Below are positions 36,960 through 50,314 of a stretch of 64,000 bases of DNA, piece by piece. A model generated the notes under the pieces. That model saw only the letters and a program-made list of their open reading frames with translations. It was not told the DNA's origin and did not search any database. The stretch lies in assembly GCF_000027125.1 (NCBI RefSeq), contig NC_017626.1. The stretch is one strand, 5' to 3'. The DNA comes from Escherichia coli 042 (GTDB taxonomy: Bacteria; Pseudomonadota; Gammaproteobacteria; Enterobacterales; Enterobacteriaceae). The first letter of the stretch is position 1; the number at the start of each line of letters is the position of its first letter. The translations under genes were made by a program, and so were the position numbers.

Positions 36960-37550
36960 ATGTCTCGAATTTTTGCTTACTGTCGGATATCAACGCTGGA
37001 TCAGACCACCGAAAATCAACGCCGGGAAATCGAAAGTGCAGGTTTTAAAATCAAACCTCAGCAAATAATCGAAGAACACATTAGCGGCTCAGCAGCAACC
37101 AGTGAGCGTCCTGGTTTTAACCGGTTGCTTGCTCGCCTGAAATGTGGTGATCAATTGATTGTGACAAAACTGGATCGCCTTGGTTGTAATGCAATGGATA
37201 TCAGGAAAACAGTGGAACAACTGACCGAAACAGGTATCAGAGTGCATTGCTTAGCATTGGGTGGCATTGACCTGACCAGTCCAACAGGAAAAATGATGAT
37301 GCAAGTAATTTCAGCAGTCGCTGAATTTGAACGAGACCTTTTACTTGAACGCACTCATTCCGGGATAGTAAGAGCCCGCGGCGCAGGGAAACGTTTTGGT
37401 CGACCACCTGTGTTAAATGAAGAACAGAAACAGGTGGTATTCGAACGAATTAAGTCAGGTGTAAGTATAAGTGCCATTGCCCGGGAATTCAAAACCTCGC
37501 GGCAAACCATTTTAAGAGCCAAAGCAAAACTTCAGACACCTGACATATAA
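36960..37550 (+). CDS. pinQ: Serine recombinase, DNA invertase (Pin/Gin/Hin family)
   Basis: 196-aa ORF with the catalytic Ser region ([15 protein letters not shown]) and a C-terminal HTH. Confidence 0.9.
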
Positions 37551-37647: not shown

Positions 37648-38223
37648 CTACGGCAGTGCTGGCCATTCAATATCCTGTGCAGTTGACGTATCAACACGGT
37701 TCAGCAATACCCGATACTTTTTCCATGCTTCCAGCAACGAGATTTCTTCCTCCGTTGCAATTTCCAGATCTGCAGCATCCTGAAGCGGCGCAATATGCTC
37801 ACTGGCTACCTGCATCAGGTTGTTTTTTGTTTCTTCCGCCTCCCGGATCCGGAACAGTTTTTCTGCTTCCGTATCCTTCACCCAGGCTGTGCCGTTCCAC
37901 TTCTGAAACTCCCCTTCCGGCGATAACCAGGTAACATTTTCCGGTAACGGACCGAGTTCAGAAATAAATAACGCGTCGCCGGAAGCCACGTCATAGACGG
38001 TTTTTCCCCGATGATCTTCAACGAGATGCCACGATGCCTCATCACTGTTGAAAACAGCCACGAAGCCTGCCGGAATATCTGGCGGTGCAATATCGGTACT
38101 GTTTGCTGGCAGACCTGTATGAGGCGGAATATATGCGTCACCTTCACCAATAAATTCATTAGTTCCGGCCAGCAGATTATAAATTTTTATGGTCTGTGGT
38201 TGTTCACTCATTCTGAATGCCAT
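37648..38223 (-). CDS. tfaQ: Tail fibre assembly chaperone
   Basis: 191-aa ORF immediately downstream of stf, Tfa family. Confidence 0.88.
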
Positions 38224-41192
38224 TATGCAAGCCTCACAATATAGTTAAATGCGATGTTTTTGACGGTGTTTTCCGCGTTACCAGCAGCGTTAACGGTGAT
38301 GGTGTGTCCATGTGAACCAATCGCAACGGAGTGCGTATGAGCACCAATACCGACAGTATGTGCATGTGCGCCTGCGCTTGCAGCAGTGCCGGACAGCGAG
38401 TGGGTATGAGCACCATCTGATGATGTCTTCCCTGCATTACGAGTCTGGCCACTACCGCTTGTTGTGCTCATAATCCCCGCGCTTAGATTTGAAATCGCGG
38501 TATAACCATTAGGGAAAATGCTCGTGTTCGTGCCACCAAATGCACCGGAACTCTTGTGTTGGTGCGCACCGGCACTATTTGCAGTCCCGCTAATACTATG
38601 GGTATGCGCCCCGGTGTTATTCGTGGATTTGGTTCCGTAATCAAACGACGATGTGTTTTTCGTCCCCAAATCCGTACTGGATGCGCTGGCGCTGTGGGTG
38701 TGCGATTTAATGCCGTCCTGTTCCTGAGACAATACGGCACGACCACTGGCGGGTTTGCCCTTAATCGTCCAGCCACGCATATCAGGGATCACGCCTGACG
38801 GATAAGCGGCTGCAAGTTTCGGGTATGCAGATTTGTCAAAAGTCTGCCCCTGCATCAGGGCATAGCCAGACGGAACGGTATCTGATGGCCACGGGATTGG
38901 TGCGCCAGGCGGATAAAACTGCTCTGATGGCGTATAGAGTGAATAAACTGTACCGTCCGTTAACCCTTCCGGCTTATTAGCAGAATATGCTGGTGACGTA
39001 TGAATCGTCACGCTGGCATTACTGGTATAATCCCATTGAATATTTACACCAGTCGCATAATTTCCGATTGCAACGTAAATATCGTAAGTATCACCAGATG
39101 TATTGACCCAGGCAAAATTTGTAAACCCTGTCGATGTGCGCTGCCATAAAGCACCAGTAATCCCCTTCGGATTACCATTACCTGCACGCAAAACAAGTTC
39201 AGATATACCTGCCTGTTGAGGTGACCCCACGTTAAATCCCGCGCCACCAATCAACGTAATTGAAACAACAGAACTCGCCTGTGGCATGGTTACCGTTGCT
39301 AATTTGAACCAACCAGCACCACCGCTGAATGACATTGTTGTTGAGTTAAGCGTACCAATATCTTTCGGCGTCAGTGTTATATCCGCTGAAAGCGCCTTAC
39401 CATTCACCTTACGGGCAGAAGGTACCCGACCATTCGCATTATCATTAGCTGCTTTCACTGCTTTCGGTGTCGCGGCAAGCGTTTCAGATGCGCTGTTGGT
39501 TGCACTACTGAGCTGGACAATTCCTTTTTGTGCTGTCGTAGCGTTCTGAGCAGTATATTTCCCGTTAGCAAGGTCATAGGCTGCCTTTACCGACTTTGGC
39601 GTTGCCGCCAGCATTTCAGATGTGCTGTTGGTCGCGTTGCTAAGCTGAACTATCCCTTTCTGTGCTGTCGTTGCATCCTGTGCGGTGTATTTCCCGTTAG
39701 CCAGCTCATACGCGGCCTTAACGGCTTTTGGTGTTGCCGCCAGTGACTCGGAAGTGCTGTTAGTCGCACTGCTGAGCTGTACTATCCCCTTTTTCGTCGT
39801 GCTCGCATCCTCAAGCGCGACGGCGGATGCAATATCCTCTGCCCGTTTTGCCGCTGTCTCGGCGCGCGTTGCCGCGGATTCCGCCGTACTTTTGCTCTGA
39901 GCTGCCGCCGTCGCACTGCCAGCTGCCTCTGTCGCCTTCGTGGATGCCGTCGTGGCGCTGCCCTTTGCTGCTGACGCCTGTCTGGTCGCCTCATCTTTTG
40001 AAGCAGACGCAGATAATGCCGATGACGCCGCCGAACTGGCGGACGATGCGGCAGCCGTTTTTGAGGATTCTGCGCTGGTTTCCGACGCTTTCGCGTTCGT
40101 CTCGGATGTCTTCGCTGCGGAAGCAGACCTCGCTGCTGCGCTGGCCTGTACAGCGGCTTCGCCAGCCTTCGTTGTGGCTGTTGAAGCGGACGATGCAGCA
40201 CTTTCTGCCGATTTTCCGGCGGCGGTGGCACTGGCTGAGGCCTGCCCGGCATTTGTTGACGCGGCGCTGGCAGATGAGGCAGCCGCTGTTTTTGAGTCTG
40301 CTGCTGCGGAGGCACTCTGTGCTGCTGCCGTCTCAGAAGACTTAGCGTTCGTCTCGGACGTTTTTGCCGCCTTCGCGGAATTTCCTGCCGCTGTTGCCGA
40401 GGAGGCTGCACTACTGGCGCTCGAGGCTGCGCTCGTTTCTGATGATTTTGCCGCCTCTTTTGAGGCCGCCGCATCCCGGGCTGAGGTGGCAGCTTCTGAC
40501 GCCTTCGTGGTCGCGGCGGATGCAGAAGTGGCTGCTGATTGTTGTGACGCTGCCGCATTCGTTTCTGACGTTTTCGCGGCACTGGCACTGGTAGCTGCCG
40601 CGCTTTTTGAGGACTCTGCAGCGGCAGCACTTTTTGATGCTTCAGTAGCCTTTGTTGATGCCGTTCCTGCGCTGGAAGACGCTGACTGAGCCGACGTCGC
40701 GGCCTGCCCGGCTGATGTGCTGGCTGCACGTGCTGAGCCTGCAGCATCAGTCGCATGGGTTGCCGCCTCACGGGCTGATGTGCTGGCATCGCTGGCTGAC
40801 TTCTTCGCGGCTGCTGTGTTCTGCGCCACTGCGGACGCGTTACGCGCCACCTCTTCCACCATCAGTTCAAAACGGCGCAGTGCCTCAGGACGGGCATCAT
40901 CCTCCGTCATGGCACCGAGAAAATCATTCAGCGTACCGGGTCGGGAATCTTCATACACGGTGATGGTCCCGGCATGTGACGGCGGGAATCCTTCCACCAA
41001 CAGAATAACGCTGTACTGACCGTACTCAACGTCCATGCTGTAACGCCCGGCCTCATCCGGATTTTCTGAGGCCAGCGTGTTCACCACCACCGTGGTGCTG
41101 TTACGTTTTGCTTTCAGCTGGATTGTGCAGTTCTGTACCGGTTTTCCTGTGCCGTCTTTCAGTACACCTGAAATCTTTACTGCCATATTCAC
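38223..41192 (-). CDS. stf: Side tail fibre protein, full length
   Basis: 989-aa ORF: lambda Stf-like N-terminus ([19 protein letters not shown]...), long Ala/Ser/Thr-rich shaft, three tandem 41-aa repeats, His-rich tip (GAHxHS motifs), conserved end ...[18 protein letters not shown]. Confidence 0.88.
39410..39790 (-). repeat. Three tandem ~123-bp coding repeats within stf (approximate coordinates)
   Basis: Protein units [44 protein letters not shown] repeated three times; the DNA repeat is visible directly. Confidence 0.7.
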
Positions 41193-41250: not shown

Positions 41251-41850
41251 TCAGAACTTATAACCGACACCCACGATGAAACCGTCAGTGCGCCAGTCGC
41301 CACTGCCGGAGCCTTCATAAGCAATATCAATGGCCACGGATTCGGTCGGGTTAAACTGCACGCCAGCTCCCCACGCCAGAGACGTGTTGCTGTGGCGACC
41401 GTCATCACTTCCGGTCAGCACGTCGTGCGTTTTCCCCTTGTTGTCAGTTACGCGGAGATAATCCCCGGAGAAAGTCGACACACGGCTGTAAGCCACACCC
41501 GCCATCGCATACGCGCTGAACCATTCATTCACGCGCACAGACGGCCCCACCATCACGCTGAACCAGCGGTTACGCACGGAATCTTCATGCCAGCGGGTAT
41601 CGCTGTAACGGGTAAGCTGGCGATTCTTGTCTCCTGCATAGCTGAATGACGTCACCAGCCCCAGTGTGTCCGTAAACTCATAACGGTATTTCACGTTAAT
41701 CCCGTTAAGATCATCGCTGCCGGGAACGTTCGTCGAGGCATGAAGATACCCCGCGCTCAGCGTGGACTGATGTTCAGATGCCCATGCAGGCGCACCGGAT
41801 ACGGCCAGACAAATGGCTGCGGACAAAATGGCGGCATAAAGTTTACGCAT
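41251..41850 (-). CDS. lom: Outer membrane protein Lom (Ail/Lom/OmpX family)
   Basis: 199-aa ORF with signal peptide and beta-barrel pattern ending in a C-terminal Phe; lambda position between J and stf. Confidence 0.88.
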
Positions 41851-41919
41851 AATTACCTCTCGCTTTTCTGCAATAAAAAAGGCACCATTTCTGGTGCCCT
41901 TATATGGGTTATAACAATT

Positions 41920-44900
41920 TCAACGAATACTGATGCCGGAAGCGGCTTTTTTGGTCACAATCACCGTACAGTCGGTGATATTACCTGCCCACTGATTGCC
42001 TTTATGGAAAACCTTAAACTCCAGAGTGACGCTTCCCCTGCCACTCGGCATATCAATAACCGCACTGTAGCTACCGGGAATGGCCCCTTTAGTTTCTCTG
42101 GATGCGATTAATACACCGTTTTGGCGAACTTCAAAACCATAACCCGTGTATCTTGTACCTCCCGGGTTATTACCACTTCCCGGATCGCTATACGCTATTC
42201 CGTTAAAGATAATGGGCGGAATAATGATTTGACGGTCAAAGTTATGATCATCGCTTATGGTGACTGTAACCGTCCCGTTTGGTGTTTCCGTGTTACCCCA
42301 CGTACCAGCCTGTTTCGGAAATGATTTGGATACAGCTTTAACGAAATCCCCTCTGACCTGAGTCGCCTCCAGCATGCCCTTAATCGTACAGTTTTCATTT
42401 ACCGTGACATTGTTGAGCGTCCCGGCGTTCGCATTCACACTGCCACTGATATCCGCATTTTTAGCGGTCAGCTTTCCGTCTGATGTCAGGGAAAATACCG
42501 GTGGATTTCCACCGCTGGTAATGGTGGGGGCCGTCAGGCGCTTCAGGAACACGTCGTTCATGAATATCTGGTTGCCCTGCGCCACAAACATCGGCGTTTC
42601 ATTCCCGTTTGCCGGATCAATAAACGCGATACGATTGGCGGCAACCAGAAACTGGCTCAGTTTGCCTTCCTCTGTATCCTCCATGCTGAGGCCAATACCC
42701 GCGACATAATGTTTGCCGTCTTTGGTCTGCTCAATTTTGACGCCCCACATGGCATTCCACTTATCGTTAGCATCCTTCCACTCTTTCGAAAACTGCTCCA
42801 GTCTGCTGGCGTTATCCTCCGTCAGGTCGACTTTTTCCAGCAGCTCTTTACCGAGATGGGATTCGGTTATCAGGCCTTTGAAAAAATCCAGGTAACCTTC
42901 GGCATCATCGCTCGCCCGACCAACAGCCTCCACGAATGCCGATTTGCCAACGGTGTTCACACTGCGAACGTAAAAATAATAATTATGGCCCGGCCTGATA
43001 TTGATACTGGCGGCTATCCAGTACAGCGCCGTGCCAAGATAGCGTGCTGTGGTTTCAACCTGCCTGATATCCGCAATCCGCTTTTCCGAGAACCAGAACT
43101 CAAACTGTACCGTCGGGTCATAAACCGCAAGATGCGGCGTGGCGGTTATCTGAAAATAGCCCGGCGTCAGCTCAATCCGCGACGGCGCTGCCGGTGCGGC
43201 AATCCGGAACGATACCGACGCCGGATCGCCCTGCTGCTCCCACGCATTTACTGCCCGGACTGTCAGCCTGTAGTTCCCCAGAGCCAGTTGTGTGAAGCGG
43301 TAAGTGGTTTCCGTCGTCCGGGCCGTGCTGACCAGCCGCTCACTGCCGTCATCCGCTGCCACGGTCAGGCGAAGCATGAAACTCACGCCCTTCACCACCT
43401 TCGGCGTGTCCCAGCGGGCCAGTACCTGATACTCCCCGCTGTCTGCGGTGACTTCGGCAGTCAGGTGCTGCACTGCTGGCGGCGTGACACCATTCACCGT
43501 GCCGCTCTGGTCGCCGTCAAAGTGCGCCCCGTTATCCACGATAGCTTCTTTTTCCGGTACATGCTGCACGGCGGTGATGGCATACGTGCCGTCGTCGTTC
43601 TCACGGATACTCACGCAGCGGAACAGGCGCTGGCGCAGCGTCGGCAGCTTCAGCCCCCATACGCTGTATCCGGCAACGCCGTCAGGAACACGGCTCACTT
43701 TTACCTTCACGCCGTCGGTGACGGACTGGACCTCCACGCTGACCGGATTGCCACTTCCGTCAACCAGGCTTATCAGCGTGGTACCGGAGGATGGCAGCGT
43801 GATTTCACGGTCGAGCGTCAGCGTCCGGGTCTGGCTGTTCACCGCCAGCACGCGCCCGCCGGTGCTGATCCCCGCATAGTCATCATCGCAGATTTCAATG
43901 ACATCGCCCGGCACATGGCGAAGCCCTTCCGCACCCACGCTGAAGTCCACGGTCTGCGTTTCCAGTAGTTCCGTTTTAATCAGCCACAGCCCGGCGCGGT
44001 GCGCCTGCCCCCGGCTGGTACAGCCAAAGGCATCCATCTTCGTGACGTTACGACCGTAACGGAGAATGGCCTGCGTATCTTCAACAAGCTCTGTCGCCGT
44101 CTCCCAGCCGTTATCCGGGTCAATCCAGTTCACCTCAACGGCATTATGACGGTCCTTCAGGGCACTGAAGCTGTAGCGGAACGGCGCGCCATCATCCGGC
44201 ATCACCACATTACTGCGGTTATAGGTCCACACCTTATCCGACGGTCGGTCCTGCACGAACGTCAGCGTCTGCCCGTTCCATACCGGCATACAGCGCATCG
44301 CCGAGCAGAAATCACTGAGAACATCCCACGCCTTGCGCTGTGTGGTCAGGTAGGCATTACAGGTGATGCGCGGCTCCGTGCCACCAAAGCCATCCGGCAC
44401 CGACTGGTCGCAATTCTGGCCGATGACATACAGCGCCCATTTGTCCACATCCGCCGCACCGAGACGCTTCCCCATGCCGTAGCGCGGATGGGTCAGCATA
44501 TCCCACAGACACCAGGCCATGTTGTTGCTGTATGCTGGCTTAAACGTTCCGTCCCAGATACCGCTGTATTGCCGCGTCTGCGGGTTATAGTTCGACGGCA
44601 CCTGCAGAATGCGCCCGCGAAGATGATAATTACGGCTCACCTGCTGGCTGCCGAACTGTTCCGAGTCCACCTGCACGCCGACCAGTGCCGTGTTCGGGTA
44701 GCACTGTTTCACATCGATGATTTCGGTGTATGACGACCAGAGCGTTTTGTTCTGCAGCTGGTCTGTGGTGCTGTCCGGCGTCATCCTGCGCATCCGGATA
44801 TTAAACGGGCGCGGCGGCAGGTTACCCACCACCACCGAGGCCAGATACTGCGAGGTGGTTTTGCCCTTAATGGTGATGTCTTTTTCCGTCACCCAGCCAC

Positions 44901-45333
44901 CGTTACGCTGTATCTGAACCAGCAGACGGACTTCCGACGGATTCCTGTCACCCTTTGAGGTGGTTTCCACCAGTGCCTGTACACCGAAGGTAAAGCGCAG
45001 TCGGTCGATGTTTGCCGACGTGATGGCGCGGGTGATCGGCGTGTCGTATTTCACTTCCGTACCCAACACCGTCTCGGAGCCGGAGGATTCAAATCCCTCC
45101 GGCGGAGTCTGCTCCTGCTCACCAGCCCGGAACACCACCGTGACACCGGCGATGTTGGTATTCCCATCACTGTCCAGCACCGGCGTACTGTTCAGCAGCA
45201 CGCTTTTTAATCCATCCACCGGACCTTCAATCGGCCCTTCACTGATGGCATCAATCACACTCAGCAACTGCGTGGACTTCAGGTTGTCCTTCGCTTCGCG
45301 CGGGGTATGCCCCTTACTGCTTCCTTTACCCAT
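41920..45333 (-). CDS. J: Tail tip / host specificity protein J
   Basis: 1137-aa ORF, lambda J-like from [21 protein letters not shown]...; C-terminal region differs from what I remember of lambda J. Confidence 0.9.
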
Positions 45334-47410: not shown

Positions 47411-47739
47411 CAGTTCACCACCTGTTCAAACTCTGCGCTGAACTCAACACGCAGCATACTGACCCGCGACGACCATTTTGCGCAGGTCACCTTTATCTGC
47501 CGCCACTCATAAGGCGGCGTCCACAGAAAGGCTTTCCAGCCCCCGTGCTCAGCCAGAAACGACTCCAGCGCCGTGGCCTCCCAACGGGGAACAGAAAGCG
47601 TCACGCTGTACGTTTTCAGGTCGGCATTCAGCCCGGCAGGCGCTCGCTGGGAATAGCCATCACCAAAGCGCACTTTCCTGACGGAAGGGGCCGAAGCCAC
47701 ATCCATACCGGGTTTCACTTTCCAGCGGAAGGTCTTCAT
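47410..47739 (-). CDS. M: Minor tail protein M
   Basis: 109-aa ORF with ATGA overlap with L. Confidence 0.88.
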   Translation of the reverse strand: MKTFRWKVKPGMDVASAPSVRKVRFGDGYSQRAPAGLNADLKTYSVTLSVPRWEATALESFLAEHGGWKAFLWTPPYEWRQIKVTCAKWSSRVSMLRVEFSAEFEQVVN

Positions 47740-50314
47740 CGTCCACCTCCGGAGAACAGACCACCATCGCGCATCTGTGCCTGAATTTCATCACGGGCAC
47801 CCTTGCGGGCCATGTCATACACTGCCTTCATCATCTGTGGACCTGGCAGACCATTCGTACCGTCGTTCTGAATCACCACGTGATTGTTCTGATTAAAATT
47901 AATGCCTTCAGCCCGCCGCATCTGCGCCGGACTTCCGGCACCGCCCACATAACCACCTTCCGCATAGCCCCGCATCAGGCGGTACAGGTTGCCGACACCA
48001 ATTCGGCTGGTTGCCTCCTTCGTGAAGACAAATTCACCACGGTGAACAATCCCCGCTGGCTCATATTTGCCGCCGGTTCCCGTAAATCCTCCGGTTGCAA
48101 AATGGAATTTCGCCGCAGCTGCCTGAATGGCTGTACCGCCTGATGCGGATGCGCCGCCACCAACAGCCCCGCCAATGGCGCTACCGATACTCCCGACAAT
48201 CCCCACCATTGCCTGCTTAAGCAGAATTTCTGTCATCATGGACAGCACGGAACGGGTGAAGCTGCGCCAGTTCTGCTCACTGCCGGTCAGCATCGCCGCC
48301 ATATTCTGCGCAATACCATCAAAGGTCTGCGTGGCTGCACTTTTAACCTGCGACATACTGTCCGTGGCGCTCTCTTCCCACTCACTCCAGCCGGACCTGA
48401 GGCCTGCCATCCAGCTCCCGCGAAGCTGGTCTTCAGCCGCCCAGGTCTTTTTCTGCTCTGACATGACGTTATTCAGCGCCAGCGAATTATCGCCATACTG
48501 TTCCTTCAGGCGCTGTTCTGTGGCTTCCCGCGCTGCCTGCCGGTCAGTAAGCCCCCGGTTTTTCGCCTCAATGGCTGCCCGTTTTGCCCGTTGTTGCTGT
48601 GCGAACTTATCCGCCTGCTGCGCCAGCGCGTTCAGGCGCTCCTGATACGTAACCTTGTCGCCAAGTGCAGCCAGCTGGCGTTTGTACTCCAGCGTCTCAT
48701 CTTTATGCGCCAGCAGGGATTTCTCCTGTGCGGACAGCTGGCGACGTTGCGCCGCCTCCTCCAGTACCGCGAACTGACTCTCCGCCTTCCACAAATCCCG
48801 GCGCTGCTGGCTGATTTTCTCATTTGCTCCGGCATGCTTCTCCAGCGTCCGGAGTTCAGCCTGAAGCGTCAGCAGGGCAGCATGAGCACTGTCTTCCTGA
48901 CGATCGCCCGCAGACACTTTCACGCCGGACTGTTTCGGCTTTTTCAGCGTCGCTTCATAATCCTTTTTCGCCGCCGCCATCAGCGTGTTGTAATCTGCCT
49001 GCAGGATTTTCCCGTCTTTCAGTGCCTTGTTCAGTTCTTCCTGACGGGCGGTATATTTCTCCAGCGGCGTCTGCAGGCGTTCGTAAGCCTTCTGCGCCTC
49101 TTCGGTATATTTCAGCCGTGATGCCTCAGACTCGGCCCAGTCCTTTGCTGCCATCTCTCTGGCCTTTTCAAGATCGGCCTGCAACGTGGCGGCTGAAAGC
49201 CCAAGTTGCGCATTCGCTCTGTCCTCCCATGCTCCCCGGAGATTGGCAAGAAATGCTGAGGTTTTACCGCGCCGGTGGCTTCGGCTCTGATACCACTGCC
49301 ATTTTTTGTCCGCCTCATCAAAAGCCTTTTCTGCTTTCTCCAGCATTCCCTGGGCAGTGTCCGGGCGACCAATATCCAGCACCGAATCCCACATGGATTT
49401 GAATGCCCGTGCTGTCCTGTCTGCCCAGGTCTCCAGCGTGCCCATGTTCTCTTTCAGGCGGCGGGTCTGGTCATCAAACCCTTTCGTTGCGGCCTCGTTC
49501 GCCGCCTGCAATGCCCCGGCCTCATCTCCGGAACGCTGCAACTGAGCAACATACGCAATCTGCTCCGCCGTCACGTTATGGAACTGACGTGCCATCGCTG
49601 TCAGTCCCGACGTCGGGTCTGTGGTCAGCTTCCCGAAGGCTTCAGCGACCTTGTCCACCTCCACGCCGGATGCAGAGGAGAAACGCGCCACACTCTGGCT
49701 GATCGCCTCAAACTGCTCACCACCACGCACACCGGCATTCACCAGCGCCGTCAGTGACTCGCTGGTCTGGTTAAACGTCAGCCCTGCCGCCTGCCCGGCT
49801 CTGGACAGGGCCAGAATACGATCTGCCGTCAGTCCCGCCTGATTGCCGGAAAGGACCAGCGTTTTGTTGAAATCGGACAGGGTTGAGTTGCCCTGATACC
49901 AGGCATACGCCAGCGCACCGGTCGCCACCGCCAGCGAGGTGGCCCCACCATCGGCAGGGTGATCGCACCGGCAAGCCCCCTGAACATGGGGATCATCCCG
50001 CCGAAGGAGTCCTTAACCTGACCACCCTGTTGCAGCAGGATCAGCCACGGACTTTGCCCGCCTGCAAGCTGCGTGGCCACGTCGGTGAACTGTGCAGGCA
50101 GCATACGCATGGCGGCTTTATACTGCCCGACGGAAATCCCCGCTTTCTGTGCAGCCAGCGCCTGTCGGCTCAGCGACTGTTCAACGACTGCCGCTGTTTT
50201 TTTCGCATCAGTTTCCGTACCGGAAAAATGACGCCTGACTCTGGCCATCTGCTCGTCAAATCTGGCCGCATCCAGACTCAAATCAACGACCAGATCGCCT
50301 ACCGGTTCAGCCAT
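47736..50314 (-). pseudogene. H: Tail tape measure protein H, interrupted by a -1 frameshift in a G-run (plus-strand CCCC 49943-49946)
   Basis: N-terminal 161-aa ORF (49829-50314, MAEPVGDLVVDLSLDAARFDEQ...) and C-terminal 730-aa ORF (47736-49928) lie in different frames and together reconstitute a lambda H-like protein (ends ...RDGGLFSGGGR). Confidence 0.8.

Follow-up and report, generated by a model that had tools for sequence, protein, structure and literature searches.

Results

Organisation of the prophage

The window, a 64,000-nucleotide stretch of the Escherichia coli 042 chromosome, carries a lambdoid prophage at the ydfJ (Qin) site, from approximately 35624 to 64000. The prophage adjoins a truncated ydfJ, beside ydfI, ydfG and dcp, which identifies the site as that of Qin. 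Its genes run in the order pinQ, tfaQ, stf, lom, J, I, K, L, M, H, T/G, V, U, Z, FII, FI, E, D, C, B, W, A and nohA, after which come the Qin-type genes ynfO, ydfO, gnsB, cspI, rzpQ and rrrQ; gene for gene, this is the order found in an annotated prophage of E. coli KH_005. Alongside the Qin-type genes, the prophage carries the full head and tail operon of a lambda-like phage. The prophage looks like a full-length relative of the Qin remnant in K-12, which is not known to carry head and tail genes.

Compared with their KH_005 counterparts, the late genes checked, from nohA (which encodes the small terminase subunit) to tfa, have their full length, the tape-measure gene excepted. This homologue of lambda H (47736..50314, minus strand, 2579 nt) is frameshifted: a G run at approximately 49944-49947 has a 1-nt deletion (GGTGGGGCC in the window against GGTGGGGGCC in KH_005), so that the gene is read as two ORFs, one of 161 aa (49829..50314) and one of 730 aa (47736..49928). 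Either the missing nucleotide is a sequencing error in the homopolymer, or the frameshift is real and would render the prophage tail-defective. Elsewhere in the prophage, the Rz-like gene (rzpQ counterpart; 63332..63727, minus strand) can be aligned with its KH_005 counterpart from residue 34 only, and its 5′ end is therefore different or deleted.

The J gene and its product

The gene J, for the tip attachment protein (central tail fibre, host specificity protein), lies at 41920..45333 on the minus strand. The ORF list and translation show it to be intact, as an unbroken reading frame of 3414 nt and 1137 aa. The segment 41920..42500, to which the first-pass annotation had drawn attention, is the 3′ end of the gene and covers approximately the last 193 codons; the peptide strings quoted there do occur in the translation of this ORF. 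In a phmmer search, lambda J as resolved in PDB 8iyk (chain J, 8iyk_J) covers residues 1-1136 of the window protein with 2289 bits, and the protein also exceeds the Pfam cut-offs for six J-specific domains (Phage-tail_3, FNIII-A_GpJ, Ig_J, Ig_J_second, Phage_Tail_Tip and Ig_GpJ_C). The protein thus belongs to the lambda gpJ family: it is similar over its full length, it has the domains of the family (hub, FNIII/Ig pair, tail-tip fibre domain and C-terminal Ig-like receptor-binding domain, RBD), and its gene occupies the canonical place in the tail operon, following M, L, K and I and preceding lom, stf and tfa.

Two parts of J can be delimited by amino acid identity to the J proteins of lambda and phage 434. 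Codons 1-969 (42427..45333, minus strand) encode a lambda-like body with hub domains, two FNIII/Ig domains, an alpha-helical shaft and a beta-prism fibre, these domain names being taken from the lambda structure paper (PMC11101478). Codons 970-1137 plus the stop (41920..42426, minus strand) encode the receptor-binding "specificity region", which by its identity to 434 J is of the phage 434 class. Within it, the Pfam match to PF12421 (Ig_GpJ_C) marks the Ig-like receptor-binding domain proper, at residues 1001-1136 (41926..42333, minus strand).

A protein identical to the window J is already present in NCBI (e.g. CBG34503.1, "host specificity protein J"), where it is found on 24 contigs, and the 90%-identity cluster to which it belongs has 4993 members. 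An assembly or frameshift artefact was considered as the source of the divergence described below and was rejected: the ORF is continuous, its length equals that of 434 J, and the exact protein occurs on those 24 public contigs.

A 434-class end on a lambda-type body

The window J was aligned with lambda J (NC_001416 15505..18903; NP_040600) and phage 434 J (OL657226 15505..18918; UMO75286.1). Over residues 1-969, the window J shares 97.0% of its positions with lambda J (940/969) and 97.5% with 434 J, in agreement with the first-pass annotation, which had described the N-terminal ~970 residues as near-identical to lambda J. Over residues 970-1137, the identity to lambda J is 39% (68/174 aligned columns) and indels occur at four sites, whereas the identity to 434 J is 93.5% (157/168) with zero indels. 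By tblastn, the last 172 aa of J are 40.7% identical to lambda. Because identity to lambda, counted per 50 columns, drops from 47-50 before the boundary to 13-21 after it, the break, as judged from the alignments, is a sharp mosaic boundary and not chance variation. It falls between codons ~970 and ~990. The earlier statement that the last ~150 residues diverge therefore holds as regards the divergence itself, at 39% identity to lambda, while the extent is better given as ~150-168 residues.

The DNA comparison places the limits more widely. Homology to lambda, at 96%, stops at window position 42364 (J codon ~990) and restarts at 41378 inside lom. Homology to 434, at 95.4%, is unbroken from 46100 to 40765, a range that covers the whole of J and lom with the terminator between them and reaches ~430 bp into stf.

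Within the RBD, the substitutions relative to 434 J are A970S, V978I, E980Q, S1004A, Q1008K, A1009V, N1019D, S1049D, Q1071K, R1099G and W1115R. With close identity to 434 J across the specificity region and the same pattern of indels relative to lambda, the window RBD is a member of the 434 class. It falls outside the lambda (LamB-binding) class, sharing 39% identity with lambda J residues 960-1132, and outside the phage 21/A8 class, with only 44-46% identity. When the C-terminal 200 aa were set against lambda, HK97 and phage 21, as the first-pass annotation had proposed, the end of J was indeed found to be not identical to that of lambda (39%). The C-terminal ends of the HK97 and HK022 J proteins, 25% and 19% identical to the window J, are mostly unalignable with it and hence uninformative on the RBD; that of phage 21 can be aligned with the RBD and, at 44% identity, is of a different class.

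Finally, dN/dS between the window J and 434 J is 0.067 for the body and 0.103 for the RBD, which indicates purifying selection on both parts of the protein.

Family and predicted fold of the receptor-binding domain

The RBD scores 90.6 bits against PF12421 Ig_GpJ_C, for which the curated gathering cut-off is 26.2, and it is accordingly a member of that family. Searched alone against PDB, it retrieves lambda gpJ with E = 2.5e-28 and the A8 gpJ construct with E = 1.2e-37. When the RBD was the query in a protein homologue search, most of the sequences retrieved were incomplete pieces of J from E. coli, E. albertii and Shigella; these served for a small alignment. An AlphaFold2 model of the RBD, built as a monomer from a 15-sequence alignment, has a mean pLDDT of 82 and a pTM of 0.71. 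The best four Foldseek matches of this model in PDB are all gpJ RBDs (9wcb, 8xck, 9wca and 8xcj; E ~1e-14, TM 0.73), and the matches that follow are weaker by approximately ten orders of magnitude. The divergent end of J is thus a homologue of the lambda RBD and not an unrelated sequence, and its predicted fold matches that of the solved lambda RBD. Relative to lambda J, the indels lie at lambda residues 1011/1012 (+2), 1043-1049 (+6), 1078/1079 (+1) and 1099-1114 (net −4).

A module shared with phage 434, and the adjoining fibre genes

The DNA that is not of lambda type, 41379..42363 on the minus strand, runs from the RBD-coding end of J across the intergenic terminator into lom, most of which it includes, and it is shared with phage 434. 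It has almost no blastn similarity to lambda, a single 59-bp match at 41653..41711 being all that was obtained. The terminator, found by a consensus scan, is a terminator-like hairpin plus T-run directly downstream of J (41870..41901, minus strand), and its sequence equals that of the terminator annotated after J in the phage 434 record. The gene lom (41251..41850, minus strand) encodes an Ail/Lom outer-membrane beta-barrel of 199 aa (Pfam Ail_Lom, 399 bits) that is 100% identical to the Lom of the E. coli KH_005 prophage. Since the non-lambda block spans the terminator and most of lom, all of it common to 434, the J RBD and lom appear to travel as one module of ~1 kb.

Downstream of lom, the side tail fibre gene stf (38223..41192, minus strand) encodes a protein of 989 aa with the Pfam domains phage_tail_N, Phage_fiber_2 and Collar; Ur-lambda Stf has 774 aa. 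Compared with lambda stf, the DNA is patchy, at 79-87% in pieces, and the 434 homology ends ~430 bp into the gene, beyond which the 434 side tail fibre differs. Stf is therefore mosaic separately from J. The tail fibre assembly gene that follows (37648..38223, minus strand; Pfam Caudo_TAP) encodes a TfaQ-like protein of 191 aa, is 94% similar to lambda tfa, and has a counterpart annotated as tfaQ in KH_005.

The gene pinQ (36960..37550, plus strand), a Pin-type serine invertase with Resolvase and HTH_7 domains, is convergent to tfa and stf (37648..41192, minus strand), with a gap of only ~100 bp. No second, inverted fibre-tip/tfa cassette was seen, and for this reason a tail-fibre inversion switch, if ever present, looks degenerate.

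Distribution of the receptor-binding domain classes

When the last 172 aa of J were compared by tblastn with 50,697 phage records, the identities were bimodal, with 74 records at 90% or above and 170 below 60%; lambda, at 40.7%, belongs to the low-identity group. The high-identity group includes Ayreon and several Stx1a/Stx2c-converting phages (99.4%), cdtI (98.3%), Evi and 2B8 (97.1%) and mEp460 (94.2%). Phage 434 itself (93.5%) lies inside the band of at least 90% and also matches over the full-length J gene. Among phages, the 434 class can be divided into bands of at least 99% (Ayreon and the Stx phages), 95-99% (Evi, 2B8 and cdtI) and 90-95% (434, mEp460 and Tritos).

A BLAST search of complete E. 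coli genomes found the DNA of the 434-class RBD (506 nt, 41920..42425) in 2113 of 5426, and that of the lambda RBD (NC_001416 18410..18903) in 98 of 5426, in every case at 99% identity or more. The five lambda-RBD records that were listed are all laboratory strains, such as DE3 lysogens. Among sequenced E. coli genomes, therefore, the 434-class RBD is common and the lambda class is rare, and a J that differs from that of lambda is the norm rather than the exception.

Discussion

Taken together, our results make it very probable that the J of this lambda-like prophage at the Qin site is a natural mosaic, in which a lambda-type body carries an RBD of the 434 class and for which OmpC is the most likely porin. 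The receptor of phage 434 is OmpC, and lambda given the 434 J gene, as in the h434 hybrids, switches from LamB to OmpC (PMC3509688, PMC11101478). Divergence from lambda is insufficient by itself to indicate a change of receptor, since phage 21 has LamB as its native receptor (PMC11336670) even though its RBD is, by a by-eye estimate that was not calculated, only ~40-50% identical to that of lambda across the aligned C-terminal region. It is because the window RBD is near-identical to 434 J, not because it is distant from lambda, that the receptor of the window J is most likely OmpC and not LamB. The first-pass annotation had considered a different outer membrane protein to be the probable target; this is the best-supported reading, and the 93.5% identity of the RBD to 434 suggests that the protein in question is OmpC.

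How such a protein might act can be proposed from lambda, whose J has been seen by cryo-EM to be a trimer that opens on receptor binding (PMC11101478). By analogy, we infer OmpC binding, trimerisation and a triggering mechanism for the window J as well. Residues 1-969 would build the tail-tip hub and the central fibre, and three copies of J would, by homology with lambda J, associate at the tail tip. Each RBD would then insert its four distal loops into the extracellular lumen of a trimeric outer-membrane porin, and binding would be relayed up the beta-prism and the helical shaft, such that the tail tip opens and DNA is ejected. As for the origin of the mosaic, the best explanation is recombination inside the conserved upstream fibre-coding DNA, which would have exchanged a module of ~1 kb consisting of the RBD end of J, the terminator and most of lom.

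The alternative that survives best is that J is a relic: the prophage would be tail-defective, and J would no longer function in adsorption in this strain. The 1-nt deletion in the G run, which leaves the tape-measure gene as ORFs of 161 aa and 730 aa, speaks for this reading, and with such a frameshift in the same prophage, infectious particles containing this copy of J may at present not be formed. Nevertheless, one base more or fewer in a homopolymer is what a sequencing error typically looks like, and J and the other late genes checked are full length against their intact counterparts. We consider a relic unlikely, if the least so of the alternatives; it would in any case concern the current state of the prophage and not what the RBD recognises.

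A second alternative accepts the 434 class but holds that the 11 substitutions in the RBD have redirected it to certain OmpC alleles or to a different porin (e.g. OmpF), so that the OmpC of K-12 is not the receptor. One to four substitutions in related J proteins, those of lambda and phage 21 among them, can add or change porin use (PMC11336670, PMC6646904), the A8 and 1A2 RBD classes accept different subsets of 23 OmpC alleles (PMC11338833), and the 434 class itself splits into the three bands of identity described above. However, all the indels and most of the RBD sequence are common to 434, the dN/dS of the RBD against 434 is 0.10, with no positive selection seen at this crude level, and phages with an RBD at 94-99% amino acid identity (Ayreon, 99.4%; mEp460, 94.2%) list E. 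coli K12 or E. coli as their host. Such a shift is thus quite improbable. Somewhat less so, although still doubtful, is the broader idea that the substitutions in the RBD relative to 434, and the sub-lineages within the 434 class, could tune recognition to alleles of the OmpC surface loops or extend it to another porin; if this were true, the J of this prophage would be the sign of a host range restricted to certain alleles, within a class whose receptor is usually given simply as "OmpC". That the diverged RBD still recognises LamB is scarcely credible, the precedent of phage 21 (PMC11336670; RBD only ~40-50% identical to lambda's by eye) notwithstanding, for the window RBD is not 21-like (44% identity) and is 93.5% identical to the J of an OmpC user, whose swap into lambda transfers the use of OmpC.

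In practical terms, the porin required by a lambdoid phage can be predicted from the RBD end of its J. Returning to the preferred reading of a lambda-type body with a 434-class RBD, a label of "434-class, probably OmpC" should be useful both for predicting the host range of prophages and for choosing RBD modules for lambda-derived delivery particles. A search of the literature found no receptor assignment for this RBD among its closest phage relatives (Perceval, Tritos, mEp460, ev/Evi/2B8 and Nef/KingRac). A study of infant-gut phages distinguished four J clusters, which did not match host range (PMC6969025). Earlier publications cover the mosaic nature of J, the limits of the module, the pattern of indels and the receptor used by this class, and the identical protein has already been annotated; the present case is nothing new in kind and carries little weight beyond the correct annotation of J.

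Comparison with known systems

The nearest known system is the J of phage 434. Both proteins are 1137 aa long, they are 97% identical overall with the same indels relative to lambda, and the downstream terminator and lom are held in common by 434 and the window prophage. They differ by 35 amino acid substitutions, 11 of them inside the RBD, and in that the window copy belongs to a prophage at the Qin site. Lambda J (PDB 8iyk, 8xcg, 8xcj and 8xck) shares the domain architecture of the window J, and its RBD is of the same Pfam family and the same predicted fold, but that RBD is 39% identical to the one in the window, and the lambda receptor is LamB.

The module described by Maddamsetti et al. 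(2018) fits equally well. In that work, the specificity region of J (lambda residues 960-1132) is inherited as a module, independently of the remaining J, and four indel hot spots (1012, 1048-1049, 1077-1078 and 1107) define its natural lineages (PMC6646904). Both the break at ~970-990 in the window J and its four indel sites coincide with these, and there is no difference in kind, the window RBD being one such natural lineage.

OmpC is also used by other natural RBD classes of J, namely A8 and 1A2 (as chimeras), and by the phi330 tail fibre (PMC11338833, PMC12502783). According to the authors, the RBDs of phi330, 434 and lambda share only 35-40% pairwise identity (PMC12502783). The A8 gpJ chimera, solved in complex with OmpC (PDB 9wca/9wcb), has a homologous Ig-like RBD on a lambda-type J, with 46% identity and a TM of 0.73 to the window RBD. 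The engineered OmpC-targeting gpJ chimeras of Brödel et al. (PMC11338833) were considered as carriers of the window RBD and set aside, their supplementary sequences being of other classes: 1A2, which is recoded, ends in …KKATAGITIS, and A8, which is 21-like, ends in …GISIS. With these C-termini (…GISIS in A8, …GITIS in 1A2) and without one of the insertions, A8 and 1A2 differ from the window RBD as separate sequence classes.
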